From the NCBI GenBank assembly GCA_030628225.1, contig DAOVRJ010000001.1, positions 1-40,158 of the forward strand: DNA of 40,158 nt, in the 5' to 3' direction. How positions within the stretch are numbered: the stretch's first letter is position 1; the number at the start of each line of letters is the position of its first letter. The position numbers and the translations under genes are program-made. Positions 3,995 through 22,901 of the stretch are shown here, piece by piece. This DNA is from Candidatus Zixiibacteriota bacterium (GTDB taxonomy: Bacteria; SM23-81). Below the pieces are notes generated by a model. That model was given only the letters and a program-made list of their open reading frames with translations, did not search any database and had not been told where the DNA came from.

Positions 3995-6900
3995 TTAGAA
4001 AAAAGCTCTCATCTCGGCCCTGCCCGTATGGCGGGTGGGCCGTCCTGGCTGGGAACGCAGGGAATAGCTTGTCGTGGCGGAGATGTACTGATTAAGCCGA
4101 TAGTCCACGCTGAGGCTGTAGCGGTAATTGCTGCCCACACTGTTGCCCTGGGCCATCTCCCACGAAATGGCCGTCCCCTCGGGCTCTGCGGTCACATAGG
4201 CCCAGCCGAAATCACTCCTCAGCTTGCCCTTGACCAGAAAAGAATAGGAAACCCTGGGCGACAGGGAGATCATCCGCGATCTAGTTTGGCCAACAGCATC
4301 CTGATCTCCCCTGAATTCGGTCTTCAGAGAAAGCTCCAGGCTGCGTTCCGGGTAAAAAGTTCCCTCCACAGAAAGATCATCGGCCCGGATTCTGCTCTTG
4401 GGGACATCCTCCAGCTTGCGGAATCTGTTCTCATGTTCATACTCCAGCCGCAGCATCGGCCGGTTCCCCGGGGCCAGGTCTATCCGGATGGACCTTTTGA
4501 TCCTGAGATTTTCCTCGCCTCCGGAAATATACTGATTGTTCTCCTGGTCTGCGCTCTGATAACGGAGACGCACCCCCACATCCCTCCGCTGGGGAAAAAG
4601 AAAAAAGTCCTGCCGGAAAAAAATCTCTCCGCGGAGGGTAGTATCATCCCGCTGGAATTTATCCAGCCGCAGCAGATAAATAGCCATCTTATCCTGCTCA
4701 GTGGTCTTCTCGCCGATCTTTACGAATGTGTCGCTGGACAGATTGCGCATGAAATCCAGAACTCCGCCGCTCCGCTCAGCAACAGCCCGATGGGGCGTCA
4801 GGCGCAGACGCAGACCGACTGTTAGATCGGTAACCGGGATGGAATCGCCTACCGTCTCCGTGCGGAAAACCCAGTTCCCGTCAGGATCGGGAATATACTC
4901 CCCGTCCTCCAGGATATAGTCCCCCTTCCCCTCTCCAACATCCACGGGGATCCTCTGCTTCCTGCTGTCCTGGGTGTTGCTGACCTGGTAATCAACCTGA
5001 GTCTGTACCGCTCCTTTCAGAGGTGCGTAGTTGAGCTTAGTGTAGATGAGATCCACCTTGCTGTTGGCACCTTCCATCTCCTGAAACTGTAGGGTGCGCC
5101 TGGTGTGCTCCGCCGTGAAGGACAGGGATCGCCAGTTCCCAACGGCCAACCGGTTTTTTTGTGTGCGGCCGAGACTTTTTTTCAGCCATTTGCCATTATA
5201 GGCGTGATCCTGGCGATAGGTCAGCTGTGTTGAGATTGAGAGGGCTCCCAAACCCACCGTGGAGAGACCACCGCGAAATTGATCGTATCGCTTCCCGGAA
5301 GTCAAACGGCCAACTCCTGTCAGGTCCAATTCTTTCAATTCCCTTGATTCGCCCTCCCAGGAAAACAAAGGCTTGAGCCGCCAGAGGGTATGATCTGTCG
5401 TCAGTCCCCGTCGAATCCAGCGAGTGCGCTGGCCCGATGAGGATTCAAACCAAGGATACTTCCTTTCGCTTTCGATCAACTCGTAATGAACCGCCAGGTG
5501 GGGCAGACGACGAGGAGTGACCTCCGAGCTCAACCGCCTGCGAGTGGAGGAAAACAGGGATCCCCTGCTGAGCTGACCATATTCTGCGGACACTTTCGCG
5601 GTCGAAAAGGGTCGGTAAGTTCCAGAAATCTCCCTGACTTCCTCGGGATCTGGCTTCCTCTCCCGATCCAGATCCCAGCGACGATCATGTTCTACCTCCT
5701 CGCTGCGGCCCGGGGGACGAAAACGCTCATCTGTTGAGCGATACTCGCCCATCAAATCCAGGTGACCAAACCCGCGGGAACCCAACCTGATAGACTGGTT
5801 GATAAGCCTCCCCTCAAGGGCGATGCCGCGGCCCACGTTGTCGTCATCGCTTTTTCCAGACAGGGTATTGTCGTCTCTTAGGCTGATGCCCAACTCGGCT
5901 TTCAACCGTAGAGTGGAAGATGAAATAAGCTCTGCTTGAAAGTCAACCATGGACTGTTTGCTGGGCAGGGGCAGGTATATCCGGGGAAGGTAGCGCCGGT
6001 CACCATCACCCATGTAGACGTAGTAGTAGCGGTTGTCCTGCAGGCTGAACTGGCGAACGTATTCTCCGTTTCCCGATCCCACATCGCTGAATGCCACATT
6101 ATAGATGCCGATGGAGTCCGGCCCTACATACACGAAATAGGTAGAATCCACCCAAACATAGTCCCCCCTTCCTCCCGCGCTGGTGTCCACCAGAACCCAG
6201 CCGTTCCTCCAGGCCGCTTGGGAATCGTCTCCCGCCCCCTCCAGGATGGCCCGATCCTCCCTGGACAGGGCCACGTCGATGGGGTTATCGCCGTCGTCCG
6301 ATTCGCGAATGTACATCGTATGCAGTTTGAGCTTATCATCAAGCAAAGCAGTCCCACCATACCCTCCGTAGAAGCTGCGCTTGTACTTCTGACCGGAGTA
6401 CTCGTAGTCCACCACTATCCGGGAGTCGGCGGTGATCAGATGATGCATGCTGAAAGTGATCTCTCCGCTGCCATACTCGATGACGTAATCGTTGTTTTGC
6501 CCCCGGGTTACCCGTTCGCCACCCACCCACACCCGTTCCGTGCCGGCCAGCACGATGATGTCTGTCCCGCCCTGATCATCCGTCAGCTGATAGGGACCCT
6601 GTTTACCCTCTATTCCGGAAAAGCTCATGCTTCGAAAATATCCCCTGGAAACCGCTCCCGCCAGGGTAGCATGAATTCCCGGGAACTTGACAGCACCCTT
6701 GGCCCCCTGCAGCTTGCGATTAAACTGCCCGAACTCTCCCTGCAGATATGCGATCTCGAAGTCACCCAGGGTGGCCGTGGCGTTTCTGCTGCTGATCTCC
6801 ACCAGTACTTTGTCGATCTCCTCCAGCGTTTGGGTGTCTCCCTCCGGCTGCAGGGGACTGCTTTGATCGGACAGCAGGGCCACAACTTCCACATCGGTCG

Positions 6901-7453
6901 AGACCTTGCCGGAGATATTTACCTGCAGGGATTGTTCTAGAGAGAGGTCGCGATCTGAGCCCAGAGAGATGGCGAAGGTTTTACTTCCGCCCACTCTCAG
7001 GGCTGATGGAATGCTGGTCTTCGGAGGGGTTGTGGTTACAGCGGGGGCGGACGAGGTGAGAACCTGTGCCTCGCCCGGCTCACCTGTCTTTTGCCGATGA
7101 AAGTACTGCTTCTTCAGCAAAAAGGGCAATTTCTCATACTGTACGCGGATAAGAGAGGTTAATGATGGAGGGACAGTAAAAGTGATCAGACCCAGGTCAT
7201 AATCTATCCGGTAATCCAGAAGTTGAGTTAACGGTCGCTCATCTACCCAGACTCGCTCCCGATGGAGCAGAAGAAATTGGTCAGGAAGTTTAAAGGGGCC
7301 AGTCGTTCCATCTGTCTCTAGGAGAACGGTCCTGTGAAAAAGGGAATAGTACTGTTCCCCGGCGGGCTGTCCGGCACAGGAATCAACCTGGAGAAAAATA
7401 GCCCAAACCAGCAACAGGCAAGAAAACAGGTGGCCAACTGTCCTCGTGCTCAT
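3995..7453 (-). CDS. Large (1152 aa) exported protein, predicted outer-membrane beta-barrel of unknown function
   Basis: Signal-peptide-like N-terminus (LFSCLLLVWAIFLQVDSCAG). The N-terminal third holds two copies of one motif: LLDYRIDYDLGLITF...IRVQYE and NNDYVIEYGSGEITF...IVVDYEY. The C-terminal ~650 aa show an alternating polar/hydrophobic strand pattern and end in ...GRAEMRAFF, which looks like an OMP beta-signal. The stop lies 10 nt before the Omp85 gene start. The ORF itself is firm; the barrel call is by eye. Confidence 0.55.
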   Translation of the reverse strand: MSTRTVGHLFSCLLLVWAIFLQVDSCAGQPAGEQYYSLFHRTVLLETDGTTGPFKLPDQFLLLHRERVWVDERPLTQLLDYRIDYDLGLITFTVPPSLTSLIRVQYEKLPFLLKKQYFHRQKTGEPGEAQVLTSSAPAVTTTPPKTSIPSALRVGGSKTFAISLGSDRDLSLEQSLQVNISGKVSTDVEVVALLSDQSSPLQPEGDTQTLEEIDKVLVEISSRNATATLGDFEIAYLQGEFGQFNRKLQGAKGAVKFPGIHATLAGAVSRGYFRSMSFSGIEGKQGPYQLTDDQGGTDIIVLAGTERVWVGGERVTRGQNNDYVIEYGSGEITFSMHHLITADSRIVVDYEYSGQKYKRSFYGGYGGTALLDDKLKLHTMYIRESDDGDNPIDVALSREDRAILEGAGDDSQAAWRNGWVLVDTSAGGRGDYVWVDSTYFVYVGPDSIGIYNVAFSDVGSGNGEYVRQFSLQDNRYYYVYMGDGDRRYLPRIYLPLPSKQSMVDFQAELISSSTLRLKAELGISLRDDNTLSGKSDDDNVGRGIALEGRLINQSIRLGSRGFGHLDLMGEYRSTDERFRPPGRSEEVEHDRRWDLDRERKPDPEEVREISGTYRPFSTAKVSAEYGQLSRGSLFSSTRRRLSSEVTPRRLPHLAVHYELIESERKYPWFESSSGQRTRWIRRGLTTDHTLWRLKPLFSWEGESRELKELDLTGVGRLTSGKRYDQFRGGLSTVGLGALSISTQLTYRQDHAYNGKWLKKSLGRTQKNRLAVGNWRSLSFTAEHTRRTLQFQEMEGANSKVDLIYTKLNYAPLKGAVQTQVDYQVSNTQDSRKQRIPVDVGEGKGDYILEDGEYIPDPDGNWVFRTETVGDSIPVTDLTVGLRLRLTPHRAVAERSGGVLDFMRNLSSDTFVKIGEKTTEQDKMAIYLLRLDKFQRDDTTLRGEIFFRQDFFLFPQRRDVGVRLRYQSADQENNQYISGGEENLRIKRSIRIDLAPGNRPMLRLEYEHENRFRKLEDVPKSRIRADDLSVEGTFYPERSLELSLKTEFRGDQDAVGQTRSRMISLSPRVSYSFLVKGKLRSDFGWAYVTAEPEGTAISWEMAQGNSVGSNYRYSLSVDYRLNQYISATTSYSLRSQPGRPTRHTGRAEMRAFF

Positions 7454-7498: not shown

Positions 7499-8515
7499 TC
7501 ACAGGCCTTCTGTTTCGGCTCGGCGCACGATCTGGAAGATCTGAACTCGCCCGTTCCCGGAGTCCAAGACGCAGAGCAAATCCGTGCCCGAGACGGCCAG
7601 GTCTATCGGCGAATGAAAGGATCCGTAGCCCGTGCCGGCGGCGCCCAGGCTGAAGAGCAATTCGCCCTGGGAGCTGAAGACGCAGATGCGATCATGGCCG
7701 GTATCGGCAACATAGAGATAGCCCTGGCCATCGGTTGCCACACCCTTCGGTCCCTTGAGCAACCCCTGACCTATGCTGCCCAGAAAACTGCCGAAGGCAT
7801 CGTAACGAGCGATGCGGTCATTTCCTGTGTCGGCAACGAAGACGGCGCTCCCGCGGCCGATTGTCAGACCCGCTGGTGTTCTTAGACGATCCGCAGCAGA
7901 GGTAAATCCTCCGAAGGAGCGTTCCAGCTCTCCGAAAGAGGTCAGTATCAACACCTGCTCGTTCTCCTCATCGCTGACATACAGCTCTCCTGTGGGAGCC
8001 ATCTCGATGTCCCGCAGGAATCCGAAAGCCAACGGCTCTTCCTCCTCCGTGGATGGTGGGATGCTGGACAGAAAGTTCAGATAGCGGTCAAAACGCTGCA
8101 CGCGCCGATTTTGAGAATCCACAACATAGATGTTTAACCCCTCCCGAGCAGACAGGCCCGTGGGCCGATTGAACCGTCCCTCACCCCATCCGAATCCCCC
8201 GATCTCCTCGATGAGGCGGCCGGCGGAATCGAATTTCTGCACCCGGTGATTCCCCGTGTCGGCCACATAGATATTCCCCTCTGGATCGACGGAGATACCC
8301 TGGGGATTCAGGAATTGGCCAGGACCGCTCCCGGGACTGCCGAAGGTCCGCTGAAACTTCAGCGCCCGGGGTGGAACGGAATGACCCGGCGCCCACCAGG
8401 AGGACCCGCTCTTTGTTCCGCTCGCCGAACAGGCCAGATATGAGCCAACGGCTAAAATCAACGCCGATGAAATCCAAATTGGAAAGTTCTGTCTGTGAAA
8501 TAGATCACTGAACAT
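7499..8515 (-). CDS. NHL-repeat beta-propeller protein with Cys-containing signal sequence (possible lipoprotein)
   Basis: Five to six NHL repeats are visible: GQFLNPQGISVDPEGNIYVADTGNHRVQKFD, GRFNRPTGLSAREGLNIYVVDSQNRRVQRFD, LRTPAGLTIGRGSAVFVADTGNDRIARYD, LKGPKGVATDGQGYLYVADTGHDRICVF and FHSPIDLAVSGTDLLCVLDSGNGRVQIFQ. I chose the ATG at 8515 (MFSDLF..., hydrophobic stretch ending SYLAC/S, GGAGAG upstream) as the start. The maximal ORF reaches 8614. Confidence 0.8.
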   Translation of the reverse strand: MFSDLFHRQNFPIWISSALILAVGSYLACSASGTKSGSSWWAPGHSVPPRALKFQRTFGSPGSGPGQFLNPQGISVDPEGNIYVADTGNHRVQKFDSAGRLIEEIGGFGWGEGRFNRPTGLSAREGLNIYVVDSQNRRVQRFDRYLNFLSSIPPSTEEEEPLAFGFLRDIEMAPTGELYVSDEENEQVLILTSFGELERSFGGFTSAADRLRTPAGLTIGRGSAVFVADTGNDRIARYDAFGSFLGSIGQGLLKGPKGVATDGQGYLYVADTGHDRICVFSSQGELLFSLGAAGTGYGSFHSPIDLAVSGTDLLCVLDSGNGRVQIFQIVRRAETEGL

Positions 8516-8648
8516 GGCCTTTGCTCTCCGGAGAAATGTGTGGAGACAGCCAGCACGTCCAAGAGGTATTTGGGACCAGGAAAGGAGGGAACTTGGATGG
8601 CAGGAAAACGGCACAAGGCTAATGGGGGGTGCAAATCTACCGCTCGGC

Positions 8649-9422
8649 CTAAAAGCTCCTCTTCAGACCGATGACCACCATCGAGGAGCCGGGTGCCGGT
8701 CGCACACAGAGGGAGAGCTGGACCGGTGAGGGCCGGGAGGCGTGCTCTTTGTTGTATGCCCTGGCTGTCCTGGCGGCGTCCACGGCGCTCACCAGATGGT
8801 TGAGCAGAATGACCCCGGTCACGATGATCGCGTTGTGTTCCGCGTTGATGCTGGTCCGATAGATGGAGTCAAATTCCCTTTGCGAGCTGTCGCTGTCCCA
8901 CTCCCAGAAATCGCTCCCCGAATAGAGCTGGGCCTCCTCCCGGTAATTTATGAGCTGTCGGCTGTTATACTCCTCCATGCTGGTAAAGATACTCACGTCC
9001 TCAAAGTACTCCTTGGATTTGCCCCGGATATCGACGCCGGCGTGCGTCGCCGCATAGAGCTGGTAGTCTTCCTCTTTCCAATCGCTATAGAGGTGCAATC
9101 CCAGAAATCCAGCTAAAATAGCCAGCTCCGTTCCTAAAAAGATCCGTCCGCGACCCGGTGCCTTGGTGTAAAACTGCCCGGTGCCGGGTATCAGAAGAGA
9201 GAGAATAAAGGCTTTCGGCGCCGATCTGGACTCTGCAGATGTCAGGATAATTTCCCCGGTTTTCGCGGCCACGGGGCCCATTGCCCGGTCACTCCCCTGA
9301 GCTACCATGGATAGATCCATGAGCGTCACGATGGAGTGACTCCTGGCTTGAATGGGCAAGAATGTGATCAGCAAGCTGGCTGCCAACCCGGCGACCCACA
9401 AAAGGCCTGTATGCGCCTTCAT
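8649..9422 (-). CDS. Small membrane protein, DUF5683-like (paralog of 12495..13418)
   Basis: Start chosen at MKAHTGLLWVAGLAASLLITFLPIQA (ATG 9422), preceded by GGGGGAGGG. The maximal ORF to 9530 would overlap the upstream gene. The protein shares LSLLIPGTGQFY (hydrophobic hairpin), a Trp/Tyr/Asp/Glu-rich middle, NHLVSAVDAARTARAYN and a C-terminal ...GLKRSF with its paralog. Confidence 0.6.
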   Translation of the reverse strand: MKAHTGLLWVAGLAASLLITFLPIQARSHSIVTLMDLSMVAQGSDRAMGPVAAKTGEIILTSAESRSAPKAFILSLLIPGTGQFYTKAPGRGRIFLGTELAILAGFLGLHLYSDWKEEDYQLYAATHAGVDIRGKSKEYFEDVSIFTSMEEYNSRQLINYREEAQLYSGSDFWEWDSDSSQREFDSIYRTSINAEHNAIIVTGVILLNHLVSAVDAARTARAYNKEHASRPSPVQLSLCVRPAPGSSMVVIGLKRSF

Positions 9423-9435
9423 CTGGCCCTCCCCC

Positions 9436-12400
9436 TTATCCGTCCGAGCTAATAAAGGTAAACAAGAGATTGAAATAGACCCGCCACCCCCCCTTCTCTG
9501 CCGGGCGGTTTTCGATGGCCGGAATATCATCTAACCCATAGGCGGCTGCAAGGCTGAGCTTTGTAGGAAAGGCGTAGAAGGAAAAACAATCCAATCTGAA
9601 CTCTGCCCCAACATTTTTCTTGATATCGTCGAAGTTGACACCATCGTCATTCCAGGCCTTGCCGGCGCCGTAGAAGATGGACCCGCACAGCTTGTCAAAA
9701 TAGACCTGGAAAAACTGCTTGCTGATGTCCATCCAGATGGGAAAGCGATAAGTCACATTCCCCAAAGCTATCCGCCGGCCCTCGATGCTATAGAAGGAGT
9801 AACCCCTGAGACCCTCCTGACTGCCCAGTTGAAAGTAAAAGAAGTCGTCCACGGCCTCGTCGATCACCCCACCCTTGAGGTGCAGGATCAGAGAATGCCG
9901 TCCCCAGGGAAGAGCCCGGTATTCTTTCCAGTCCAGCCGAAACTGGTCGTAGTAGTTCTTGTAGTAAGCGGTGACGTAACCGTATTCCGTTAACTTCCCC
10001 TCGTTTGGATTGATCAGTTTGTTGAACATGCGATCGTAGCGAAGATGTATCTCCCGCCCACCCCGGGGGTTGATCTCGGCATCCCGGGCCCGGGAGATGG
10101 ATTTATAGTCCCAGCGCAGGGATATATCGTGGCCGCGAAAGTAGGTCCAGCTATCTTTGCCCAAAAGCCATCCTTCCGGATAGTGTCCTGGTACCGGCTC
10201 CCGGGTCCAGGCCTCCAGATAGACATCGTACTTACTGAAGATGTAAGCCAGGGTAAGCTCTTTCTGGTAGGTGATGGACATGGGGTCACTCCAAGCATAC
10301 CGGATCCCCAGGTCAAATTCCGTCAGATCATACCGCGTTTCCAAACCAACCAGGGTTTTATGGCCATCGATCCGGTCATATACCTGATCATCGACATGTT
10401 TGCGCAGCCGAAAGGCCTCGAAGAACAGAGTGGGGGCGAACATCCGGTTCTCGTACTGGGCATAGAAATCGAAGTCCCCATCTTTGGCCACCACGGCCGT
10501 GGCGAAAGCAGACTGCTTGCTCAATAGCTCCTGTGAAGCTAAATATAAGCCCCCCTTGAATTTGTTGTCGTCAATAACGAAACGGGGCAGGAAAAAGGTC
10601 TTGTTGAAAATGGACTTGTAGGGCCGGGACTCAAAATGGGGCGCAGCCTCCCGGTGACCTGGATTATCGCCCAGGCCGGCAATGGACGGAATATCCGCAG
10701 GCTTCCCCAGGGTCTCATCCATAGGCAACAGGAAGATCTGGTACCCATCCGAGGTGTATCCGGAATAGACCACCGTCTTCCCGTCCGGGGAAAGGGAGGG
10801 GTTGAAGGCCCCACCCACCACATTAGTCACCTGGGTCAGGCTTCCCTCGTCCAGCCTGTATACATAAAGATTGAATATTCCTCCCCGGTCCGAGGAAAAA
10901 CAAACGGTCCGACCGTCGGGGGACCAACAGGGATCGCGATCATCCTCCAGTCCCCGGATCAAGGAACAACCGCCCGTGCCATCGGTGTTGACCAGGGTCA
11001 CGTCCCGGGTCCGCTCGCGAAACGTGCTCACCAGGATCTTATCACCGCCCGATGACCAGCGGGGGCCATAATACTGGGTGCCATCCTGGTTATCCGTCAG
11101 AGTTCGAACCAGCTTCCCATCGGGATCCAGCAGGGCCAGATTGCGGGTACCGTCGCCATTGAGGACCACCAGTATAGACTGGCCATCAGGAGACCAGCGA
11201 GGATCAGTGGCCCGCAGTTCATGGGTCAGCCGCTTCTCTTTTTCGGTCTTCAGATCGTAGAGATAGATATCGTTCACATGAGAGCCGTATTTGTTAGGCT
11301 TCACCCTCTTGGCATAGACCAGCTTTTCCCCGTCCGGAGACCAGGATGCCGCCGAGCGGAGCCCTCCGGCCACCTGTTCTGCCTCCTGGGTCTCCATGTC
11401 CATCACGTAGAGGCTCATGATCTGGTAATCGCTGCCCTTGTTGGACAGATAGGCCAGCTTTGTCCCATCCGGCGACCAGGCGGGATGGATGTTCATCCAG
11501 CCCTCCTGGATTATCTTCCTGCCTTCCACCAGGTCTTTCTCCACCATCCTCTGCTGGTCCTGATACTCGTCCAGCATGTGTTCATGCCATTCGCGGTAAA
11601 GCTGTTTTTCCGATCTTCCAGTGACCTTCTTTATGGCCGAACCGAAGTTATACCGCCATGGGCTCCTCATAGCCCGACACAGGTCTTTCAGGCTCTTGGG
11701 CCCATATTTCTCGGCGATGTACCGGGTCAGGGAAAATCCCTGGTTGTAAACCATCTCGTTGCCCAGCCCGATCTTTCCAAATCCGCCCATCTCGTCGCAA
11801 CTTAGCAGCTTGTCGCCCAGGACACCCATGCGCAGCAGCATGTCCCGGTGGGTGTCCCAGGACTCATGATCGAGGGAAGGGGCCTGGTACTGGGCCAGCC
11901 CTTCGGCAAACCACAGGGGAACCACCGTCCCGGGCAGGGGATAAGATATGATCACGTTGGGGTACCCGCTGATTACATCGGGCCTCTTCTCCTTCTCATA
12001 GCCGATGTACTGCAGGTAGAAGGATGGCAGCCACTGGGGAAACTTGCGGGCCAGCTGCAGGGAGACCATGTGAGTGAACTCGTGGGTGATGACGTTGCGC
12101 AGCCAGTGGTGCATGCCCCGCAGCTCCCAGTCCATCTGGGTGGCCCAGATGGCGATCTTGTTCTCATAGTAGTAGGCCATTCCATTGGCATAGTCGTCGG
12201 TATCGTAGATGATCAGGTCCACCACCTGGGGTAGCGGATAGTCATAGAGAGAGGTGATCGGATCATATATCTCCTCGGCGATCTGTGCCGCCAACTGGGC
12301 GGTACGCTCGGCACCCTGGTGGTAGTGAATCCGGAAGTGCTCCCTCTCAATGGTGCGCCATTCCAGCTCCGGATGGTTATAGGCCCAAGCTTGGCCCACC

Positions 12401-12453
12401 GCGATCAAGAGGATGGCCAGACAGATCATGATATGTGAGATCCGAACGTGCAT
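9436..12453 (-). CDS. Fusion protein: HExxH (Peptidase_MA-like) domain + six PD40/TolB-type propeller repeats + C-terminal Omp85-type beta-barrel
   Basis: Signal peptide MHVRISHIMICLAILLIAVGQAWA (ATG 12453; the maximal ORF starts at TTG 12498). VITHEFTHMV lies at nt 12070-12084, with WFAEGLAQY about 55 aa later (gluzincin-like). PD40 repeats: WSPDGTKLAY, WSPDGEKLVY, WSPDGQSILV, WSSGGDKILV, WSPDGRTVCFSSDRGG, LSPDGKTVVYSG. The aromatic-rich C-terminal ~390 aa contain QLGSQEGLRGY...NVTYRF (LRGY at nt 9799-9810). This aligns with the KLGGARTLRGY...NLEYRF motif of the Omp85 protein at 2200..3984. Confidence 0.7.
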   Translation of the reverse strand: MHVRISHIMICLAILLIAVGQAWAYNHPELEWRTIEREHFRIHYHQGAERTAQLAAQIAEEIYDPITSLYDYPLPQVVDLIIYDTDDYANGMAYYYENKIAIWATQMDWELRGMHHWLRNVITHEFTHMVSLQLARKFPQWLPSFYLQYIGYEKEKRPDVISGYPNVIISYPLPGTVVPLWFAEGLAQYQAPSLDHESWDTHRDMLLRMGVLGDKLLSCDEMGGFGKIGLGNEMVYNQGFSLTRYIAEKYGPKSLKDLCRAMRSPWRYNFGSAIKKVTGRSEKQLYREWHEHMLDEYQDQQRMVEKDLVEGRKIIQEGWMNIHPAWSPDGTKLAYLSNKGSDYQIMSLYVMDMETQEAEQVAGGLRSAASWSPDGEKLVYAKRVKPNKYGSHVNDIYLYDLKTEKEKRLTHELRATDPRWSPDGQSILVVLNGDGTRNLALLDPDGKLVRTLTDNQDGTQYYGPRWSSGGDKILVSTFRERTRDVTLVNTDGTGGCSLIRGLEDDRDPCWSPDGRTVCFSSDRGGIFNLYVYRLDEGSLTQVTNVVGGAFNPSLSPDGKTVVYSGYTSDGYQIFLLPMDETLGKPADIPSIAGLGDNPGHREAAPHFESRPYKSIFNKTFFLPRFVIDDNKFKGGLYLASQELLSKQSAFATAVVAKDGDFDFYAQYENRMFAPTLFFEAFRLRKHVDDQVYDRIDGHKTLVGLETRYDLTEFDLGIRYAWSDPMSITYQKELTLAYIFSKYDVYLEAWTREPVPGHYPEGWLLGKDSWTYFRGHDISLRWDYKSISRARDAEINPRGGREIHLRYDRMFNKLINPNEGKLTEYGYVTAYYKNYYDQFRLDWKEYRALPWGRHSLILHLKGGVIDEAVDDFFYFQLGSQEGLRGYSFYSIEGRRIALGNVTYRFPIWMDISKQFFQVYFDKLCGSIFYGAGKAWNDDGVNFDDIKKNVGAEFRLDCFSFYAFPTKLSLAAAYGLDDIPAIENRPAEKGGWRVYFNLLFTFISSDG

Positions 12454-12494
12454 ATTGGTCCCCGTAGCCACTAAGGCAGCCAAAAAGCGAATGT

Positions 12495-13418
12495 TCAAAA
12501 TCTCTTGGTTAAGGTGATCTTGGGGATAGCCTTTCCGGCGTAGATATCCATCCCCATGCGCAGCTCAGGATAACCGGCTTCCTCCAGGGATCGCCGGTTA
12601 AAGGCCTTGGCGGCTAAAGCGGCATCCAGGGCGCTGATCACGTGGTTGAACAGGCTGGCGCTGATCCCCCAGGTGGCTCGCTTGAGCAGGTCGTTGGCGT
12701 CGCCGCGCAGGTTAGCATATCTGTCTCGATTCACAGTGGCCGTGGCGTCGCCCCCGCGGCAGATGTCCCGAGTGGTCTGATCGAATGTATAGCCCAAAAG
12801 GGAATCATTGGGGGCGAAATCGCCGGGAAGGTAATCCTGCGGGTTGCCGACCCAACCAAAGGAGAACTGGTCGTATTTGCCGATCATCTCGTAGTAATCG
12901 CCGTCCTTCTGAGCAGGCAGGTGGTGGGTGAACATCTTATCGAAATCGGGATCGTTGTCCCCCTTACGGGCGTCGTACCAGTCCTCCCAGTCGCGATACC
13001 AATCAAGATAAGCATCTTCGGACCACTCGACGTCGGCGAAATCCATGTACTCGTCCTCCTTGTCCTTGCCGGAGCTGTGCTGGGTAAAATACCATGCCCA
13101 GGAAGCCGTCTCTACAGCCAAGAAACCTATGGCCCTCTTCTCAGCCCCAACGTAGAGCTCTCCCATACCGGGAATGATCGCCGAAAACAGCAGGGCCTTG
13201 CCCGGGGACTTCAATCCCGGCGTGCCGGCGGGAATTCCCTCCACGAAAACCGGCTGCTGACCAACTTTCTGGGCCACCTCCCCCACCGACGGCTGTGCTC
13301 TTAGAAAATGCTCGCCGATCACACCAACCCCAGGACCGACGTCGGCCAGCGCTGTGCTGCCCAAGGCCAGCATCGTGCAGACAAGAACCAGAGACCGGAA
13401 AACGGACGTGCCTTTCAT
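12495..13418 (-). CDS. Small membrane protein, DUF5683-like (paralog of 8649..9422)
   Basis: Start chosen at MKGTSVFRSLVLVCTMLALGSTALA (ATG 13418), preceded by AAGGAGGGGG. The maximal ORF to 13622 overlaps the upstream gene. Motifs: FSAIIPGMGELY, an acidic/aromatic middle (DWYRDWEDWYD), NHVISALDAALAAKAFN and a C-terminal ...TLTKRF. Confidence 0.6.
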   Translation of the reverse strand: MKGTSVFRSLVLVCTMLALGSTALADVGPGVGVIGEHFLRAQPSVGEVAQKVGQQPVFVEGIPAGTPGLKSPGKALLFSAIIPGMGELYVGAEKRAIGFLAVETASWAWYFTQHSSGKDKEDEYMDFADVEWSEDAYLDWYRDWEDWYDARKGDNDPDFDKMFTHHLPAQKDGDYYEMIGKYDQFSFGWVGNPQDYLPGDFAPNDSLLGYTFDQTTRDICRGGDATATVNRDRYANLRGDANDLLKRATWGISASLFNHVISALDAALAAKAFNRRSLEEAGYPELRMGMDIYAGKAIPKITLTKRF

Positions 13419-13446
13419 CGCCCCCTCCTTTGAGAGATGTGCCTGG

Positions 13447-16400
13447 TTATTTGACCACCGCAATTTTGCAAAAAACCGTTTCTTGATACCCTCCTCCCCG
13501 AGCCTCCACCCGGCATAGGTAAACCCCGCTAACCACATCGGACAGATCCCAGACCACCTCGTTCTCCGTGTGGGCGAACCCTGTGCCGGGCAGATCGGCC
13601 ACCAGATCGCCGGACAGATCATAGATGCGAATGTCGACCTCGGCCTCCTGACCGAGCCGATACCGTATCGTGGTGCTCTGTCCTTCAGTGGGATTGGGAT
13701 AGTTGTACACCGAGGCCGCGGGCATCAGCTCCCCGGCCTGGGGAGGCGAGGGAAGTTCGCAGATGGGGAAACCCCCCGTGTGTCTGAAATCGTGCCCCCA
13801 GGTGGGCCAGGGGAGCTGAGCAGAGTCGGGCTCTGCCGCCAGGTCCCACACATACATCCACCCGGCCTCATCTCCGGCCAGGATCTCGATGTCCCCATCG
13901 CCGTCGATGTCGGCCAGGGTCGGCGAGGAGTTGACCGCCCCGGCACAGGCCAGGGGCCAGCCCTGCAGTGGATCCCCGAATCTGTCGTGGGCCACCAAAA
14001 GGCCCGCAGGAGTGCCCACCACGATGTCCACCTGCCCATCCCCATCCACATCACCCAGGATGGGCGAGGATTTCATGGTACCAGTATCCTTCAAAGGAAT
14101 GGGAAAGTTCGACACCGGCGAGACGTTGTAGTTCCAGGCCCAGATCTCATCGGTTCCGACAACCACTACCTCCAGATAGCCATCGCCGTCGATGTCTCCC
14201 AGGACTGGCGAACTACTCAAGGGACCTTCTATCTGCACTGGCCAACCGGTGGTCAGATGTCTATACAAATCCCAGACATAAATCTGCCCCCCGGCACAAG
14301 TGGCAATAATCTCCACAATTTGATCATCCCGATCTAAGTCTCCCCAAACCAATCCCATAATCTCTGCTGGAGTTTGAATAACACGAGGTTCTATAGAACC
14401 TTCCCCCAAGGGACAGAACGTAAACACTTGACCGTTAGCCGTTCCGGCGATTACTCTATAAACGAAAGGCCATGAAGCACCGTCGGCAACAGTCAGTGCC
14501 GTAATAGTACTTTCTCCCAGGTTAACCCGCCAGGTGATTTTATCCTCCTCGCCGGGAGCCAATTCGTATACCCAGCCGTTGGCAGTCCCCACCACAATCC
14601 TCGTCCCGCAAAAAACGCCGGGTACTCTAATCAACAAAGCGGCACTAGAAATAGGACTCTCCACGTTAAAAGGAAACCCATCAAGCTCTTCTCCGTCGTG
14701 ATTCCAGCAGTGGACATCTCCGCTCACGGCGCCCAGAACGATTTCCTGATCACCATCCTCATCCAGGTCGCCCAGGGCAGCAGAACCCGCGATGGAATCC
14801 GCCAACTGGACGAACAGAGCCGAGCTGTCCGCTCCGGGCAGAAACGGCGTTCCGTCATGATTCCACACAAAGACCCGGCCATCAGGAGTATTCATCACGA
14901 TCTCCATGTCCCCATCGCCATCCAGATCACCCACCAGGGGCGGATTTTCGGCCAGGGAAACCGCCATCGAATCGGGCCAGCCGGGCTGGTACGTGTCGAT
15001 GGACACGTCGCAGGTCATGGTCGCCCCCGAGGGGCCTATCCCAGTCACGAAAATGTGGCTGTCGGCCCCGCTGTAGCTGTTGGAGTTTGGGTTCGAGGTA
15101 GGCGTGAAGGCCGTGTTGTTGCCCTGGTAGAAGGCATCCTCGGGCATGCCATAGGTGACATAGCCCCCGTAGAGGATGTGGCCGATGTCCTGAAAACCGT
15201 CGGCCTCCTCCAGATCCACCCCCCGGTGGTAGGGGTCGGCGTTGACGGTATTGCTCTCGTAGTTCTCCCGGATGACCTTCTCGTCCACGTGCCAGATGAG
15301 CAGACCCGATCCGGGGATGCCCCAGTCGTACTCGTCCACCTCCAACAGGACCCCACCCTCGATCTGGGCCACGATGCTGTCCCCCCAGGCGTCTCGCTGA
15401 CGGTTCTCGATCAGGAAATACTCGTCGGCATTGATGGGCACTTTCAGCACGGTGGTGTTGGAGCCCCTCACCACCAGGGCATCAATGGCCACCTCCAGGC
15501 TGTCCCGCACCAACACGGGCCTCTCCCAGCCTAAAAAGATCCGCGACCAGGCGCAGGGCACCGCGGGGATCAGGCCCAGCTCGTTGCCGGAGCCCTGGTC
15601 CATCAGGCCCCAGGACCCGATGCCCGAGGAGCCATCCGCGCTGTTGTACAGATTGGGCAGCCCCAACCGATGTCCGAACAGCAGGGCCATCAACCCGGTG
15701 AGGCCGAACTCGACATCCCGCTGGTTGAGGGTCTCCGGCATCCACAGGCCCTCCTGGACAAGATAGGTTCCTCCGTTCACCGGCACTCCCTGAGCATACT
15801 GGGAGCCCAGGGACTGGCTCAGCCATTCCAGGTCCATGTAGGCCGAGGGAATATCGTTTGGCGTCTCGTCGTAAGAGAAAGCGATGTCCGCCCCCACTCC
15901 GGCGTGAAAGATGACCAGGGCATCGAACTGAGAGAAATCGATGGTGCCGGCGGCATCCGCCGTCTCCAAAGCATCCCGGAAGAACTCCGCCAGCCGCCGG
16001 TCGTTCTCCGACTCGGTGAGATTGGGGCTGTAGTAGGCCATCTCGTTGGGCAGAGTGTAGGCCGCATCATTCTCCTGCGGATAGACCTCGCAGGAGAAAT
16101 CCAACAACCCCCGGGAGACGTTCAGATAGTATCTGTGCAGGGCCTCCATCTGTCGTTGAAAATATATCCTGTCATGAGGCGGCGGGTTTATGACCTCGTC
16201 GGAGCTGGCGGAAAGGTCAAACTTGCCCGTGCCGGTTGTGGTGGAGGTGGTATCTGGGAGAAAGTCAACCCGGATGGCCAGAACGGCCTGGGGAAACTCC
16301 TCCGCAGAAACGGTCAGCCCGGCGGCCGGATCGCCCTGCACCAGATCGGCCCGATGGAAACCTTCTCTGCCGCAACGAAGAACCATACCGACATGATCGC

Positions 16401-16518
16401 TCTCGGCCCCCGCCGGGAGAGCGATAAAACAGAGGGCCGAAACTGTGGCCAGACCGGCAATAGAAACGGCAATTCTTCTGATCTTCATCGACTGCTCTCG
16501 CCTCCGCTTATGGATCAT
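13447..16518 (-). CDS. Exported M6 (immune-inhibitor-A)-like pseudo-metalloprotease domain + ~8 FG-GAP/VCBS propeller repeats + T9SS-type C-terminal sorting domain
   Basis: Signal peptide MKIRRIAVSIAGLATVSALCFIALPAGA (alternative ATG at 16488). M6-like blocks are present: VIFHAGVGAD, ALLFGHRLGLPNLYN (in place of AHEFGHxLGLPDLYD), GIGSWGLMDQGSG, LLIWHVDE and LEEADGFQD. FG-GAP-type repeats: GDLDGDGDMEIV, GDLDEDGDQEIV, GDLDRDDQIVEII, GDIDGDGYLEVVV, GDVDGDGQVDIVV, ADIDGDGDIEILA, plus two degenerate blades. The C-terminal 89 aa (nt 13450-13716) read NYPNP..TTIRYRL..VDIRIYDLSGDLV..GVYLCRVEA..KIAVVK, which fits a T9SS type-A CTD / FlgD-Ig-like pattern. Confidence 0.7.
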   Translation of the reverse strand: MIHKRRREQSMKIRRIAVSIAGLATVSALCFIALPAGAESDHVGMVLRCGREGFHRADLVQGDPAAGLTVSAEEFPQAVLAIRVDFLPDTTSTTTGTGKFDLSASSDEVINPPPHDRIYFQRQMEALHRYYLNVSRGLLDFSCEVYPQENDAAYTLPNEMAYYSPNLTESENDRRLAEFFRDALETADAAGTIDFSQFDALVIFHAGVGADIAFSYDETPNDIPSAYMDLEWLSQSLGSQYAQGVPVNGGTYLVQEGLWMPETLNQRDVEFGLTGLMALLFGHRLGLPNLYNSADGSSGIGSWGLMDQGSGNELGLIPAVPCAWSRIFLGWERPVLVRDSLEVAIDALVVRGSNTTVLKVPINADEYFLIENRQRDAWGDSIVAQIEGGVLLEVDEYDWGIPGSGLLIWHVDEKVIRENYESNTVNADPYHRGVDLEEADGFQDIGHILYGGYVTYGMPEDAFYQGNNTAFTPTSNPNSNSYSGADSHIFVTGIGPSGATMTCDVSIDTYQPGWPDSMAVSLAENPPLVGDLDGDGDMEIVMNTPDGRVFVWNHDGTPFLPGADSSALFVQLADSIAGSAALGDLDEDGDQEIVLGAVSGDVHCWNHDGEELDGFPFNVESPISSAALLIRVPGVFCGTRIVVGTANGWVYELAPGEEDKITWRVNLGESTITALTVADGASWPFVYRVIAGTANGQVFTFCPLGEGSIEPRVIQTPAEIMGLVWGDLDRDDQIVEIIATCAGGQIYVWDLYRHLTTGWPVQIEGPLSSSPVLGDIDGDGYLEVVVVGTDEIWAWNYNVSPVSNFPIPLKDTGTMKSSPILGDVDGDGQVDIVVGTPAGLLVAHDRFGDPLQGWPLACAGAVNSSPTLADIDGDGDIEILAGDEAGWMYVWDLAAEPDSAQLPWPTWGHDFRHTGGFPICELPSPPQAGELMPAASVYNYPNPTEGQSTTIRYRLGQEAEVDIRIYDLSGDLVADLPGTGFAHTENEVVWDLSDVVSGVYLCRVEARGGGYQETVFCKIAVVK

Positions 16519-16524
16519 GAACCG

Positions 16525-17490
16525 TTAAAATCTGGCCGTCAGGGAAAAACGCATGGTATCGGCCAGCGGGTGCCCTTCCTGTGCCGTGATGTATCCGAAA
16601 TCGAAGCGAAAAAAATCGTACTGCAGACCAGCACCGAAGGTGGCCGTCTTCACCTGCCCATATTTGTCATAGATGTAACCGGCTCTCAGGGCCAGTAACT
16701 GGGCATACCAATACTCGGATCCGAAATTCGCCCACCATTCTCCTCCCACCAGTCCGATATTCAGCTCGCCACTCAGCAGAAAATCGTTGTACTGAGTGTC
16801 AAAAAGCTGATAGGCGGTCCCTATCTTCAAGTTCCGTGGTAAGGAGCTGGATTGGTTGGCATCTACGTACATGATGTCCGGCCCGATGTTCTGTAACAAT
16901 GCACCGGCACTCAGTCGGGGAATCAAGTCCCGGGAGAGGATTCCCACATCGGCGGCGTAGCTCATGGCCCGGCCATCTCCCTTCTCCACATTCTGGCCCG
17001 GGCCCAGATCGCTGTAAATGACCTTCAGGTTTACCCCCGCGGCGACACTTTCGGACAGCAGCGCCCCCAGAGAACCGCAGATGGCCAGCTCGTAGCTATG
17101 GTGCCAGCCCAGGATTTCCGGGCCATATTCTGAAGTGTAGGGCATATTTCCGTAGGAGAAGTAGATGATATGTCCCCCAAAAGTTCCCACTCCCTTCCAG
17201 GCAGCTGACCAGCAGACGAAATTATAGTACATGTCGGAGGTGAATTCTGGAAACCATTTAGTGTGCATGAAGGTTACTTCAGTGCCTCGTTGAAAGCCCA
17301 GGCCGGCGGGGTTCCAATAGGAGGCGGTGGCATCGTCGGCCACGGCCACAAAAGACTCCCCCATTCCACTGGCTCTGGCCCCGGGCGCGATCATCAGAAA
17401 CAGCACCCCGGACTGGCTAACGGCGAAACATGTGGCAGCGGGCAGGATGCTCACCAAAATGATGCCGCCGAGCAACAGGCTCCTTTTCAT
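16525..17490 (-). CDS. PorV/PorQ-family outer-membrane beta-barrel protein (copy B)
   Basis: 321 aa with a signal peptide ending CFA. The N-terminal motif APGARASGMGESFVAVADDATASYWNPAGLGF is typical of the PorV/PorQ (UPF0164-like) family. It ends in ...MRFSLTARF. It is the same length as the upstream paralog and about 60% identical by eye. Confidence 0.65.
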   Translation of the reverse strand: MKRSLLLGGIILVSILPAATCFAVSQSGVLFLMIAPGARASGMGESFVAVADDATASYWNPAGLGFQRGTEVTFMHTKWFPEFTSDMYYNFVCWSAAWKGVGTFGGHIIYFSYGNMPYTSEYGPEILGWHHSYELAICGSLGALLSESVAAGVNLKVIYSDLGPGQNVEKGDGRAMSYAADVGILSRDLIPRLSAGALLQNIGPDIMYVDANQSSSLPRNLKIGTAYQLFDTQYNDFLLSGELNIGLVGGEWWANFGSEYWYAQLLALRAGYIYDKYGQVKTATFGAGLQYDFFRFDFGYITAQEGHPLADTMRFSLTARF

Positions 17491-17522: not shown

Positions 17523-18488
17523 TTAGAACTTCACCGACAGAGAGAAACGCATGGTGTCGGCCAGAGGATGTCCTTCCTTCTCCGGGATGTACCCGAAATC
17601 AAAACGGTATCGATTGTACTGCAGACCCGCCCCGAAAGTGGGCGTTTTGATCTCCCCGTAATCGTCGTAGATGTACCCTGCTCTCAGAGCCAGAATCGTC
17701 GAGTACCAGTACTCGATGCCAGCATTGCCGCGAAACTCCTCCTCCACCAAACTGCTGTTCAACTCGACGGTGGCAAGCAGGTTGTTGTACTCAGATTCTA
17801 TGATCTTATAGGAGACACCCAGTTTCAGGTTTCTGGGCAGTGGACTGGATTGCTCGGCGTCGATGTACATAATGCTCGGCCCCAGGTTCTGTACCATGCC
17901 TCCAATTTTCAATTTGGGCCAGGGACCCTTGTACAGGACACCTACATCCACGGCGTAGCTCATGGCTTTGCCATCGCCCTTTTCCACATTTTGGCCTGGA
18001 CCCAGGTTGCTGTAAATGCCCTTCATGTTCACTCCCACGCAGAGCTCCTCGGACACATTGGTTCCATAGGAAAGACAGCCGGCGATCTCGTAGCTCTCGA
18101 AGAGGTATTGCACCTCCGGGCCGAACTCAGTTGTATAGGGGATCTTGCCGTAGGTCAGGTAAAGGATGTGTCCTCCAATACCTCCCCAACCATCAACATA
18201 ATGGGTGTAGCTCAAGAAATCATAGTACATGTCATCGGCGAATTGTGGAAACCACTTGCTATGCATAAAAGCCAGCTCTTTTCCCCTCATAAAACCGAGG
18301 CCGGCTGGATTCCAATAGGAGGCGGTAGCATCGTCGGCAACGGCCACAAAGGCTTCTCCCATTCCGCTGGCTCTAGCCCCTGGCGCGATCATCAGAAAAA
18401 GCACTCCCGCCCGGCTCACAGCAAAGCTGGAGGAGGCGGTCACCAGTACCATAAGAAGAGTGATGCCCAGAAGCAGAAATTTCCTCAT
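17523..18488 (-). CDS. PorV/PorQ-family outer-membrane beta-barrel protein (copy A)
   Basis: 321 aa. Signal peptide MRKFLLLGITLLMVLVTASSSFA with a GGAGGA SD. Motif APGARASGMGEAFVAVADDATASYWNPAGLGF. It ends in ...MRFSLSVKF. It lies directly downstream of the C25/PorU-like gene, matching the known porU-porV adjacency in Bacteroidota. Confidence 0.65.
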   Translation of the reverse strand: MRKFLLLGITLLMVLVTASSSFAVSRAGVLFLMIAPGARASGMGEAFVAVADDATASYWNPAGLGFMRGKELAFMHSKWFPQFADDMYYDFLSYTHYVDGWGGIGGHILYLTYGKIPYTTEFGPEVQYLFESYEIAGCLSYGTNVSEELCVGVNMKGIYSNLGPGQNVEKGDGKAMSYAVDVGVLYKGPWPKLKIGGMVQNLGPSIMYIDAEQSSPLPRNLKLGVSYKIIESEYNNLLATVELNSSLVEEEFRGNAGIEYWYSTILALRAGYIYDDYGEIKTPTFGAGLQYNRYRFDFGYIPEKEGHPLADTMRFSLSVKF

Positions 18489-18589: not shown

Positions 18590-21500
18590 TCAGCGCATAA
18601 CCACCACCTTTCCGTAAGCTTCGGTTCGCTTTCCTTCAACGCGAGCAATGATCTTATATAGATAGACACCGTTGGCCACGCGATCCCCATCCTGGTCCTC
18701 TCCTTCCCAGGGTTGGCTCTCGTTGTAGCCAGGAGCTATTTCCCCCTGTTCCAAAGTACGGATGAGCCTGCCGGCCACGGTGTAGATCCTGATGGTCACT
18801 CTGGCCGGACAGCTGAGCTGGTAAGTGAACCGGGTGTTCTCCGACTGAGGGTTGAAGGGATTTGGACAGTTCAGCACATTGCGCAGGAACAGCTCTCCCT
18901 CTTCCATAACCTCAAAATCCAGGGTGACCGTAGAGAAGTTGTTGAAGTTGTCCCACGCCTTCATGGTCAATGTATGCAATCCAACGCTTAACCCCTCCAG
19001 GGTATAGTTCAGCATACCCCGCTGGTAACTTCCCAGGTCGTAGTTAAACCTGTCGGTCACGTTGACACGCTGGGCATCCTCATCGACAGTCAGAACGATC
19101 CAGTGTCCCACCTCTCCGGTGATGTTGATGCCGTTCTCATCCTCCAGGTAAGCGACGATTGTAGAATTGGACGGCACAAAATCTCCGGGGGCGAACTGTT
19201 GACCGGCGATGCTCAGTTCTATTGCCGGGCCGATAGTATCTACCACCGCCGAGGCAGTGCCTTGAACCGGCAACGAATCCAGATAGGCCAAACCATCTCT
19301 GCTCTGGTCGTTGAGGTACGCGCTAATCCGGGCCATGCGCCCCCCGTAGCTGATGTCCTTGGGCACCACGAAGGTGGCCTCAAAATTGCCCTCCTCCACC
19401 AGGCAGGATCCTCGAAAAAGGGTGGCGCCGGGCAAAAGATAGTATATCTTGGACCCAACCTTGGTTGTGTACGTGGTGGCCCGGGCGGAATCAAAAACCC
19501 GCAAAGAGACGCTCCCCTGAAAAGTTGTATCCGGAACGCCCCGAGAAAAAACCTGCCCCTGAACAGTAACCCGATCCAGGGCCTTCAGAGTATCCCGGGA
19601 CATGCTGGTGATGTGGCTCTCCAGCTCCGGGCTTCCCAGCCTCATGCACGGGTCGCCAAAAAGAGCGTACTTCTGGTCGTTGCTGTACGAATTGGGTCGG
19701 CTGAGCTTGGCCCCGAACAGTCCCTCCCCCAGGGTGAGATCTTCGTTGCCTAAGACCAAGCGCAGAAACTCCTTATTCAGCTCGGCATTGGGGGTGGCAT
19801 AACAATACCTGGTGGCCCCTATGGTGGCCACGGCACCACTGTCCTTGACCCTGAGCAGCTCCTCAGACATGGATTCGTTGAGCGTGTGGTCGAACCTGCC
19901 CACATCGCAGGAGGCGGAGTAGACCAGGGGCAGACTCTGCCCATTGGTCAGCCTGGGGATATCATTGGAGCCTCGAAAAGCATCCTCATGAGCCCAGACG
20001 TCGAAGTTCCCATGTCCAATCCAATTGACCACCAGCATCCCCTCGTTGAATCCATCGATGACCGCCTGCTGTGCCTCCGGCTTCTTGTTGGACCAGTCCA
20101 TGGGGTATTCCGTCAGGTAGACCTTATGCTGGTCATAGGAGGGGGAAATGAAATTCCGGGCCAGGTCTTCGCTATCCCGGGTGTGAAAGAGCTCGTTGCC
20201 CTCGCCGTTAGCGGCAGTCTCGTCATCGGAGACGATCATCACCCGGCTGCGCCAGGGTCCGAAGAAGGGATCTAACACATAATCGGTTATTTTACCCACC
20301 ACCACACCGGCCTCCTCCTCGGAGCGCACCGGCAGACGCCCGATCATCATATCTGCCAGATAATCTCCGTCCAGGCGTACAAACCAGTCATCGGTGCACA
20401 AATCTCCCATCTCATAGGGAGGAATTAAGTTAGACCCTCCGGCACCGGAGTTATTCTTGTAATCGAAGTTTCCATCTCCAAAGAGCAAAATGTATGCCGG
20501 GGGAACCACTTGCCTCTGATTATAGGCAAACCACAGATAATCCCGTATGGCCGTGGGATCAACCAGCCCCCAGGCGAACCGGTCGTACACATCCTCGATG
20601 GTGGCCACCACAACGCGCATTCCCTCCTGGCGGTGCAAATTCACCAGAGGCTCCAAGCTTTCCTGAAACGCACGGGGTGTTACCACGATCAGATCGGCAC
20701 TCACCTCCCGCAGATTCGCCGGGATTCGCCTTTCCACGGAAAGGGGGGACACATATGCCTGCGGCGTGGCCGCATAATAGCGCCTCGGCTCCGCAACGGA
20801 CAGGTTTTCCTGAAAACGGAGAGTGTAGTGATCCTCCTGGAAGAACACCGAACCATCGGTGATCCGCACGGGCATATACGGATCGCTTACATCGAGCAAG
20901 AGAATCTGGGCCTCGGAGAAACCCGCCAGATCGTACTGTATGGTCCCCGAGGTGTCCGGGCTGGAGAAGTACAGCTGGTCCTCCACAACCTGATATCCCC
21001 GCCAGTACTCGATCTCGAACCAGTCGAACAAAATATGATCCCACTCGGACTCGACCCGGGGAAGCACGATTGTAAGGGTGTTCTCCCCCTCCCGCAATCC
21101 CTCGGTCTCTCCGTCGGCGACGATTGCCACGGCACCATACCAGAGTCGCTCGATGGTCGGATAAGGGCTGCCGTTCAGATAAAAATAGACATGATGGGGT
21201 ATGGATGAAGGTATCGATCCGGAGGACTTGTAGTAGATGCCCTTGACCCGCACCTTGAGCTGGCAGGATTCGTCTGCTACCCCCTCCAGGGTCACGCGGT
21301 GCTCCTCGGTCTCAGCCCCATGCCCCGTCATGCTGTCCCAGTACCAGGTGAGTCCTGAATAGCTCGGGTTCAGGTAATCGCGCTCCTGATGCGCAGTGGT
21401 CCTGAACCGCTCTGCCTGAATGTATGTGGTCGACTGCGCAGCTCCCGGTCGGATTTCCATCCTCCTGCCCGGCTCCCCCCCATAAGTCAGCCAGTAAACA

Positions 21501-22872: not shown

Positions 22873-22901
22873 AAAATAGACATTCCCGGCTGTTTTGTCA
22901 A
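22873..22901 (-). promoter_or_regulatory. Candidate sigma70-type promoter for the envelope cluster
   Basis: On the minus strand: TTGACA (22901-22896), a 17-nt spacer, then TATTTT (22878-22873). It sits in the AT-richer 324-bp gap upstream of the PorU-like gene. Sequence match only. Confidence 0.25.

Follow-up and report, generated by a model that had tools for sequence, protein, structure and literature searches.

The window analysed here, by which we mean the whole stretch of DNA under study, comprises 40,158 nucleotides of Candidatus Zixiibacteriota contig DAOVRJ010000001.1 (assembly GCA_030628225.1). It carries a run of eleven co-directional genes, all on the minus strand, that begins with the type IX secretion (T9SS) sortase PorU and ends with a UbiA prenyltransferase (Table 1). 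In the middle of this run, genes for two large and two small proteins alternate. They encode M6i, an M6-like pseudo-protease; a small protein of the DUF5683 superfamily, here called A; a second large protein that combines a zincin peptidase domain, a PD40 propeller and a predicted Omp85-type barrel (zincin-PD40-Omp85, or Omp85-zincin); and a second small protein, B. The initial annotation of this DNA read the four genes as two modules, each made of a large exported protein and its cognate small partner. We favor another reading, to which we assign a probability of about 0.6: the four genes would be the middle of one T9SS-linked operon, in which A and B serve the whole PorU/PorV/M6i module and the adjacency of their genes is ancestral.

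Gaps between genes are 6–101 nt across the run. Within the central block they measure 28 nt (M6i to A), 41 nt (A to the Omp85-zincin ATG at 12453) and 13 nt (Omp85-zincin to B), and ribosome-binding sites (AGGAGG before A, GGAGG before B) lie 6–8 nt from each ATG. These values agree with the gaps of 13–41 nt and the strong Shine-Dalgarno sequences before both small genes that had been reported earlier. The coordinates, sizes and domains first given for the two pairs were also reproduced, the barrel of the second large protein appearing with 16 strands in an AlphaFold2 (AF2) model, though the Omp85 profile PF01103 has no match on the window copy. The best sigma-70-like promoter match of the region, which is also its sole good promoter-like site, is located just upstream of PorU; no terminator-like match in the run falls between genes. 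The eleven genes appear to form a single operon, which this pattern fits as weak evidence. A T9SS translocon is present in the phylum of this organism, since SprA (TIGR04189) scores above its curated cut-off in all seven of the genomes of the phylum that were sampled, and PorU and PorV are encoded at the locus itself.

Table 1. Features of the eleven-gene run in order of predicted transcription, with the candidate promoter.
Feature	Positions	Strand	Basis or remark
Candidate promoter, TTGACA-17-TATTTT	22873-22901	-	sigma-70-like match, ~230 nt 5' of PorU start
PorU sortase	18590-22642	-	NF033707, 742 bits
PorV/PorQ-family barrel 1 (PorV)	17523-18488	-	NF033709 (the two barrels score 260 and 237 bits)
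PorV/PorQ-family barrel 2 (PorV')	16525-17490	-	NF033709 (as above)
M6i, 1023-aa pseudo-protease: M6-like, FG-GAP propeller, type-A C-terminal domain	13447-16518	-	NF052323, FG-GAP_3, TIGR04183
Small protein A, 307 aa, DUF5683 superfamily	12495-13418	-	hidden Markov model (HMM), AF2, profile-profile
Zincin-PD40-Omp85, ~1005 aa	9436-12453 (open frame to 12498)	-	HMM, AF2, homologs
Small protein B, 257 aa, DUF5683 superfamily	8649-9422	-	HMM, hhalign to A
NHL propeller	7499-8614	-	downstream operon part
1152-aa predicted outer-membrane protein (barrel), faint SprA match	3995-7453	-	downstream operon part
BamA/TamA-like Omp85, 3 POTRA domains, 594 aa	2200-3984	-	downstream operon part
UbiA prenyltransferase	1339-2178	-	downstream operon part, last gene

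Gene order and phyletic distribution of the small-protein genes

We compared loci around homologs in metagenome assemblies and in family-level representative genomes, which were annotated with HMMs built from the window proteins and their orthologs. Two arrangements recur. In type I clusters the order is PorU (not always present), PorV, M6i, Omp85-zincin, A and B. This order was found in a sister family of the same phylum (G001-3), in a Gemmatimonadota chromosome (CP070758), in metagenome-assembled genomes of Calditrichaeota and KSB1, and in G056, G089, G022, G069, G098, G062 and L006; the loci assigned to it are L006, L012-14, L019/24, L020, L021, L025-27, L031, L033 and L040. In type II clusters the order is PorU, PorV, M6i, A and B, often followed by genes for an NHL protein, a homolog of the 1152-aa protein and a BamA-like protein (G025, G017, G034, G090, G021, G041, G072, G065, L004 and L005; loci L004, L005, L023, L030, L032, L035-38 and L042). 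A few genomes depart from both. Three carry one B-like gene after M6i (G010, G085 and G100; L048-50). In G111 the A and B genes are adjacent while M6i and an Omp85-zincin-like gene lie on other contigs, in G078 A follows Omp85-zincin and B stands alone on another contig, and in G067 the four genes are dispersed over four contigs.

The interleaved order of the window, M6i-A-Omp85-zincin-B, was observed solely in G000, G004, G005 and G006 (SM23_81), which belong to three genera of one family. Only in this family does Omp85-zincin lie directly 5' of B. Adjacency of A and B is the norm, downstream of M6i and with or without Omp85-zincin between M6i and A, and was found in about 24 other family-level lineages, including Gemmatimonadota, KSB1, Calditrichota and the sister family. 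The trio that typifies type II clusters (NHL, 1152-aa and BamA-like) lies downstream of B in the window. We interpret the window order as a local rearrangement: one transposition in this family would have separated A from B by the Omp85-zincin gene and thus created the look of two modules of a large and a small protein. The conserved partnership of a large protein with a cognate small protein that the initial annotation proposed does not survive this comparison, and appears to be an artefact of family-specific gene order.

A-type and B-type sequences are distinct throughout. In every lineage each scores two to three times higher with its own HMM than with that of the other, and a tree places them in separate A and B clades, with the single-copy small genes nested inside the B clade. 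This separation argues that the duplication that gave rise to A and B is ancient, older than the divergence of Gemmatimonadota, KSB1, Calditrichota and this Zixibacteria-like phylum. The earlier view that the locus is not a recent tandem duplication was borne out. A recent duplication of a two-gene unit is ruled out by the ancient A and B clades together with the unrelated large genes, and the lack of obvious similarity between the large proteins noted before was also seen by us (best BLASTP E 0.011, on a propeller repeat).

Co-occurrence was assessed in 121 genomes, about one per family, chosen as nearest relatives. M6i is present in 29 and a strong A-type match in 28, with both in 26 (Fisher p = 6.7e-21); a strong A is thus found in 26 of the 29 genomes with M6i and in 2 of the remaining 92. 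Three genomes have M6i and no strong A: G085 and G100, with a single small gene each, and a third that is 59% complete, with a cluster that runs off the contig end. PorU exceeds its curated cut-off in 24 genomes, of which 22 have M6i by the NCBIfam model and a 23rd (G065) only by our own HMM. No full-length Omp85-zincin ortholog was found at E≤1e-30 in G017 and G034 (98% and 97% complete), both of which retain M6i-A-B, although such calls of absence are not absolute, as only a subset of first-look candidates was scored. The presence of A and B in these two genomes argues that B does not depend on Omp85-zincin. Any constant companion of the small proteins would be M6i/PorU/PorV, and common to both. 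The link that had been drawn between DUF5683-like genes and exported proteins therefore stands in part: A and B are not placed at random but are tied to the T9SS cluster and co-occur with M6i and PorU, while the one-to-one pairing still fails.

The four encoded proteins

M6i is most similar by far to the family NF052323 ("T9SS-dependent M6-like inactivated metalloprotease"), with 534.4 bits in four stretches, a score under the cut-off of 600. It also matches FG-GAP_3 (1.8e-20). Its C-terminus exceeds the cut-off of the type-A C-terminal domain (CTD) model TIGR04183 (31.8 bits against 23) and matches Por_Secre_tail, and no match to the type-B CTD model TIGR04131 was found. M6 peptidases carry the motif HEFGHxLGLPD. 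The zinc site of M6i reads ALLFGHRLGLPNLY, in which LLFGHRLGLPNLY occupies the place of that motif, and HExxH is therefore lost. We infer that M6i is a secreted pseudo-protease and CTD-bearing propeller protein, placed as PorZ is in Porphyromonas.

The open frame of the second large gene spans 9436-12498. The ATG at 12453 is its likely start and gives a protein of 1005 aa, the same length as a 96%-identical homolog. The protein carries a signal peptide, a gluzincin domain (Peptidase_MA_2) with HExxH...E intact, and a PD40 TolB-like propeller; H139, E140, H143 and E199 are invariant in 44 homologs. The AF2 model (pLDDT 87.9, pTM 0.85) consists of a peptidase domain, a propeller and a C-terminal barrel whose 16 strands span residues 635-1012 with pLDDT of about 90. 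Among 44 full-length aligned homologs 18 match PF01103 (best E 1.2e-11), while the window copy has no match at E≤0.01; one homolog is named "BamA/TamA family outer membrane protein" by NCBI. A search of PDB sequences with the Omp85-zincin profile returned TolB and other propeller proteins alone, with no BamA or TamA. The top 50 Foldseek matches of the full-length model were likewise all to propellers, TolB among them, and the barrel was not ranked. Pfam, NCBIfam and the AF2 model revealed no CTD, the C-terminus being the barrel. Because it ends in a predicted Omp85-type barrel and has no CTD, this protein is predicted not to be a T9SS cargo, and by sequence comparison the two large proteins appear to be unrelated.

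Within the Omp85/TpsB superfamily, Omp85-zincin seems to belong to the subfamily named WD40-Omp85 (Heinz & Lithgow 2014, PMC4104836), with which it shares a TolB-like propeller that replaces POTRA domains before the barrel. It differs in its peptidase domain, T9SS linkage and small neighboring genes, none of which is described for the subfamily in the relevant passages of that paper. A second zincin-PD40 paralog is encoded outside the cluster in the same genome (G000:C171:4333-5541, plus strand; 33% identity over residues 194-591, open frame of 1064 aa), and more distant paralogs also occur in genomes that have no strong A-type match.

The paralogy of A and B claimed in the initial annotation is well supported. 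BLASTP aligns them with 32% identity over 85 aa (E 1e-7), and in a profile-profile comparison with hhalign the match spans 190 columns, beginning at the hairpin and reaching the C-terminus, with a probability of 100% (E 2.6e-39). Neither reaches the DUF5683 (PF18935) gathering cut-off of 26.7 bits, B scoring 25.0 and A 14.5; many A and B orthologs elsewhere do pass it. We regard the two as divergent members of the DUF5683 superfamily and not as clean members of the family. They share with DUF5683 and with TM2-like hairpin proteins a signal peptide and a hydrophobic hairpin of the form S..PGxGQxY, but constitute two subfamilies of their own, which are linked to the T9SS and possess an additional middle domain.

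When orthologs of A and B from five lineages are aligned, a shared plan emerges. A cleavable signal peptide is followed by a variable linker of low pLDDT, the motif K-S-x-x-K-A-F, and a hydrophobic hairpin that bears P-G-x-G-(Q/E)-x-Y and, in its second helix, a conserved Glu. After the hairpin come a middle domain, a long helix with N-(H/R)-x-x-S-A-x-D-A, and an amphipathic beta-hairpin with a terminal aromatic residue. In A, the PGxGExY hairpin lies at about residues 72-112 with its invariant Glu at E103, the middle domain carries an insert with the invariant YYEMIGKYDQF..GW, and the protein ends in KRF. B is built in the same way but lacks the insert, and its last residues are KRSF. The AF2 model of A, built from 111 homologs (pLDDT 84.1, pTM 0.70), contains helices at 72-89, 93-131, 134-151 and 225-280 and one beta-hairpin at 285-304, as anticipated by the earlier description of the small proteins as helical rather than barrel-like. 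Foldseek found nothing significant for this model in the PDB; the best matches were periplasmic domains of GldM/PorM (E 0.13, TMq 0.13), which we take as chance.

The C-terminal residue is Phe, Trp or Tyr in 40 of 41 A sequences and 38 of 39 B sequences (78 of 80 together). For the B profile, 127 of its 149 representatives end in an aromatic residue. The strands of the C-terminal hairpin alternate hydrophobic and polar residues, and position -3 is often Lys or Arg. A search with the B profile matches 3004 clusters (50% identity) at E≤0.001, of which 492 are at E≤1e-30. Two further genes of this kind are found in the same genome. One (G000:C205:1176-1937, plus strand) encodes an N-terminal PEGA-like domain and the same hairpin, ends in ...RILLTRRF, and lies directly 3' of a polyprenyl-phosphate sugar transferase-like gene and 5' of a gene for a lipoprotein with fibronectin-III repeats. 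The other (G000:C96:6083-6685, minus strand) is shorter and DUF5683-like, and is located at a contig end near a gene for a 647-aa protein with a type-A-CTD-like C-terminus.

Possible role and location of A and B

Nearly all that is established about the T9SS comes from Bacteroidia. Elsewhere in the FCB group, many phyla have a dead M6 protease and two DUF5683-like proteins nearly always alongside PorU and PorV, and often a protease-bearing Omp85 barrel as well. We found no published role in the literature for M6i, A, B or the protease-bearing barrel in such clusters, and no literature that pairs type IX secretion with Zixibacteria; searches on PorU2, PorV2 and M6-like proteins gave nothing relevant. 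DUF5683 is the subject of two passing mentions, and we found no published function for the family.

The closest functional frame is the PorU-PorV-PorZ-PorQ attachment complex of P. gingivalis (PMC8545088). As in that complex, the window operon is headed by PorU and PorV/PorQ-family barrels, and M6i, like PorZ, is a propeller protein with a T9SS CTD that is encoded beside PorU/PorV. However, the complex is described without a DUF5683-like or Omp85-zincin component, and outside the CTD M6i shares no homology with PorZ (20.8 bits with NF052228, cut-off 260). A and B are most likely an accessory of the PorU/PorV/M6i late-stage, attachment-type T9SS module. They would serve that module as a whole, not one large protein each, and would probably act together, as a heteromer formed through three conserved hydrophobic helices that carry conserved polar residues.

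A different comparison lay behind the initial annotation, which likened each pair to the type-B CTD cargo of Flavobacterium with its PorP/SprF protein, so that M6i would be the partner of A and Omp85-zincin that of B. In Flavobacterium johnsoniae as in the window, a small gene lies directly 3' of a gene for a large exported protein. In the window and in all four genomes of its family, each small gene does come directly after one large gene, across a short gap, and has a ribosome-binding site to itself, and in type II clusters A does follow M6i. The analogy nonetheless breaks down in its parts: the CTD of M6i is of type A, Omp85-zincin has no CTD and would not be a cargo, and the small proteins are helical, with no Pfam or NCBIfam match to PorP/SprF (PF11751 / TIGR03519). 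Nor is the adjacency one-to-one, as B follows A and not Omp85-zincin in about 24 other lineages, A follows Omp85-zincin and not M6i in type I clusters, and both persist in genomes in which no Omp85-zincin ortholog was found at E≤1e-30. We therefore hold two cognate partnerships to be very improbable. We give still less credence to the idea that A and B have a housekeeping envelope role unrelated to the T9SS and were merely placed in the operon. The two DUF5683-superfamily genes outside T9SS clusters in the same genome would suit such a role, but it is difficult to reconcile with the near-perfect phyletic co-occurrence with M6i and PorU and with an adjacency that is kept across several phyla despite rearrangements.

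For the location of the accessory, we lean slightly towards a topology in which the signal peptide is cleaved, the helical hairpin and a third helix lie in the inner membrane, and the helical domain reaches into the periplasm toward the outer-membrane module, on its periplasmic face. Three hydrophobic helices, short Lys/Arg-rich loops after helices 1 and 3, and the resemblance of the hairpin to TM2-like proteins are consistent with this placement. A positive-inside reading by eye was only partly discriminating and was not used as evidence. As a tentative second choice, the amphipathic C-terminal hairpin with its near-invariant terminal Phe/Trp may be a beta-signal of the outer-membrane protein type that docks A and B to an Omp85 or PorV barrel.

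A fuller form of the latter idea, in which A and B would be periplasmic helical proteins tethered under the outer membrane by hairpins that the Omp85-zincin (which has no POTRA domains), the BamA-like barrel or PorV would capture, seems to us rather unlikely as an account of the locus, though it deserves consideration. It draws on the terminal aromatic residue and the alternating strands described above, on the position of the A and B genes among outer-membrane barrel genes in every cluster type, and on the detection of a P. gingivalis DUF5683 protein in outer-membrane vesicles (PMC13744359). However, three hydrophobic helices are expected to stop transfer in SecYEG and to remain in the inner membrane, the frequent Lys or Arg at position -3 is non-canonical for a beta-signal, A and B occur without Omp85-zincin, and the model of A resembles no solved structure. 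A still more specific proposal, which we consider doubtful, is that A and B are undescribed structural subunits of a non-Bacteroidia T9SS attachment machine, in which an Omp85-family barrel, either the zincin-Omp85 that has no POTRA domains or the BamA-like protein of the cluster, would grip their beta-signal-like hairpins. PorU/PorV/M6i would in this way be connected to the periplasm or the inner membrane. If true, such hairpin capture would be a new way to anchor a mainly alpha-helical protein at the outer membrane.

Several observations weigh against our preferred account of A and B as an inner-membrane accessory of the module. The occurrence of a single B-like gene in three lineages means that a strict A/B heteromer is not universal. 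The hydrophobic helices of A and B reach 0.9-1.8 on Kyte-Doolittle 19-residue windows, which is borderline for transmembrane segments, and the cytoplasmic C-terminus that this topology implies is hard to square with the conserved terminal aromatic residue. The putative heteromer, its location and any contact with PorU, PorV or M6i are predicted from synteny and sequence, and the absence of Omp85-zincin from some genomes carries the reservation given above. Overall, the genes make up a conserved T9SS-linked cassette that is uncharacterised, and its two small paralogous proteins have a fold without a match in the PDB. Treating A and B as a pair attached to the module as a whole, and not as private partners, changes which experiments are sensible. 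It also places a large orphan family, with no fewer than 3,000 clusters at 50% identity, in a functional context for the first time.

Downstream genes and variants of PorV

In unrelated families, too, B is followed in many type II clusters by the trio that encodes an NHL propeller, an outer-membrane protein of about 1100-1200 aa and a BamA/TamA-like Omp85 with three POTRA domains (L023, L035, L038, L042, L048 and L049). These genes look like a second sub-module that is conserved within this locus. The UbiA prenyltransferase gene ends the operon both here and in SM23_81 (L015), and is located directly 3' of B in a distant type II cluster (L005:11783-12679). Its presence may reflect a lipid-anchor or carrier link to the module, or may be coincidence.

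In several lineages the PorV gene encodes 760-900 aa rather than the usual 320-360 aa or so, which suggests that PorV is fused to an extra domain or a second barrel (L004:4057-6762, L005:4028-6754, L016:679-2958, L023:7993-10680, L030:8192-10699 and L048:10825-13329). Unlike these lineages, the window has two separate PorV/PorQ-like genes of 321 aa each.

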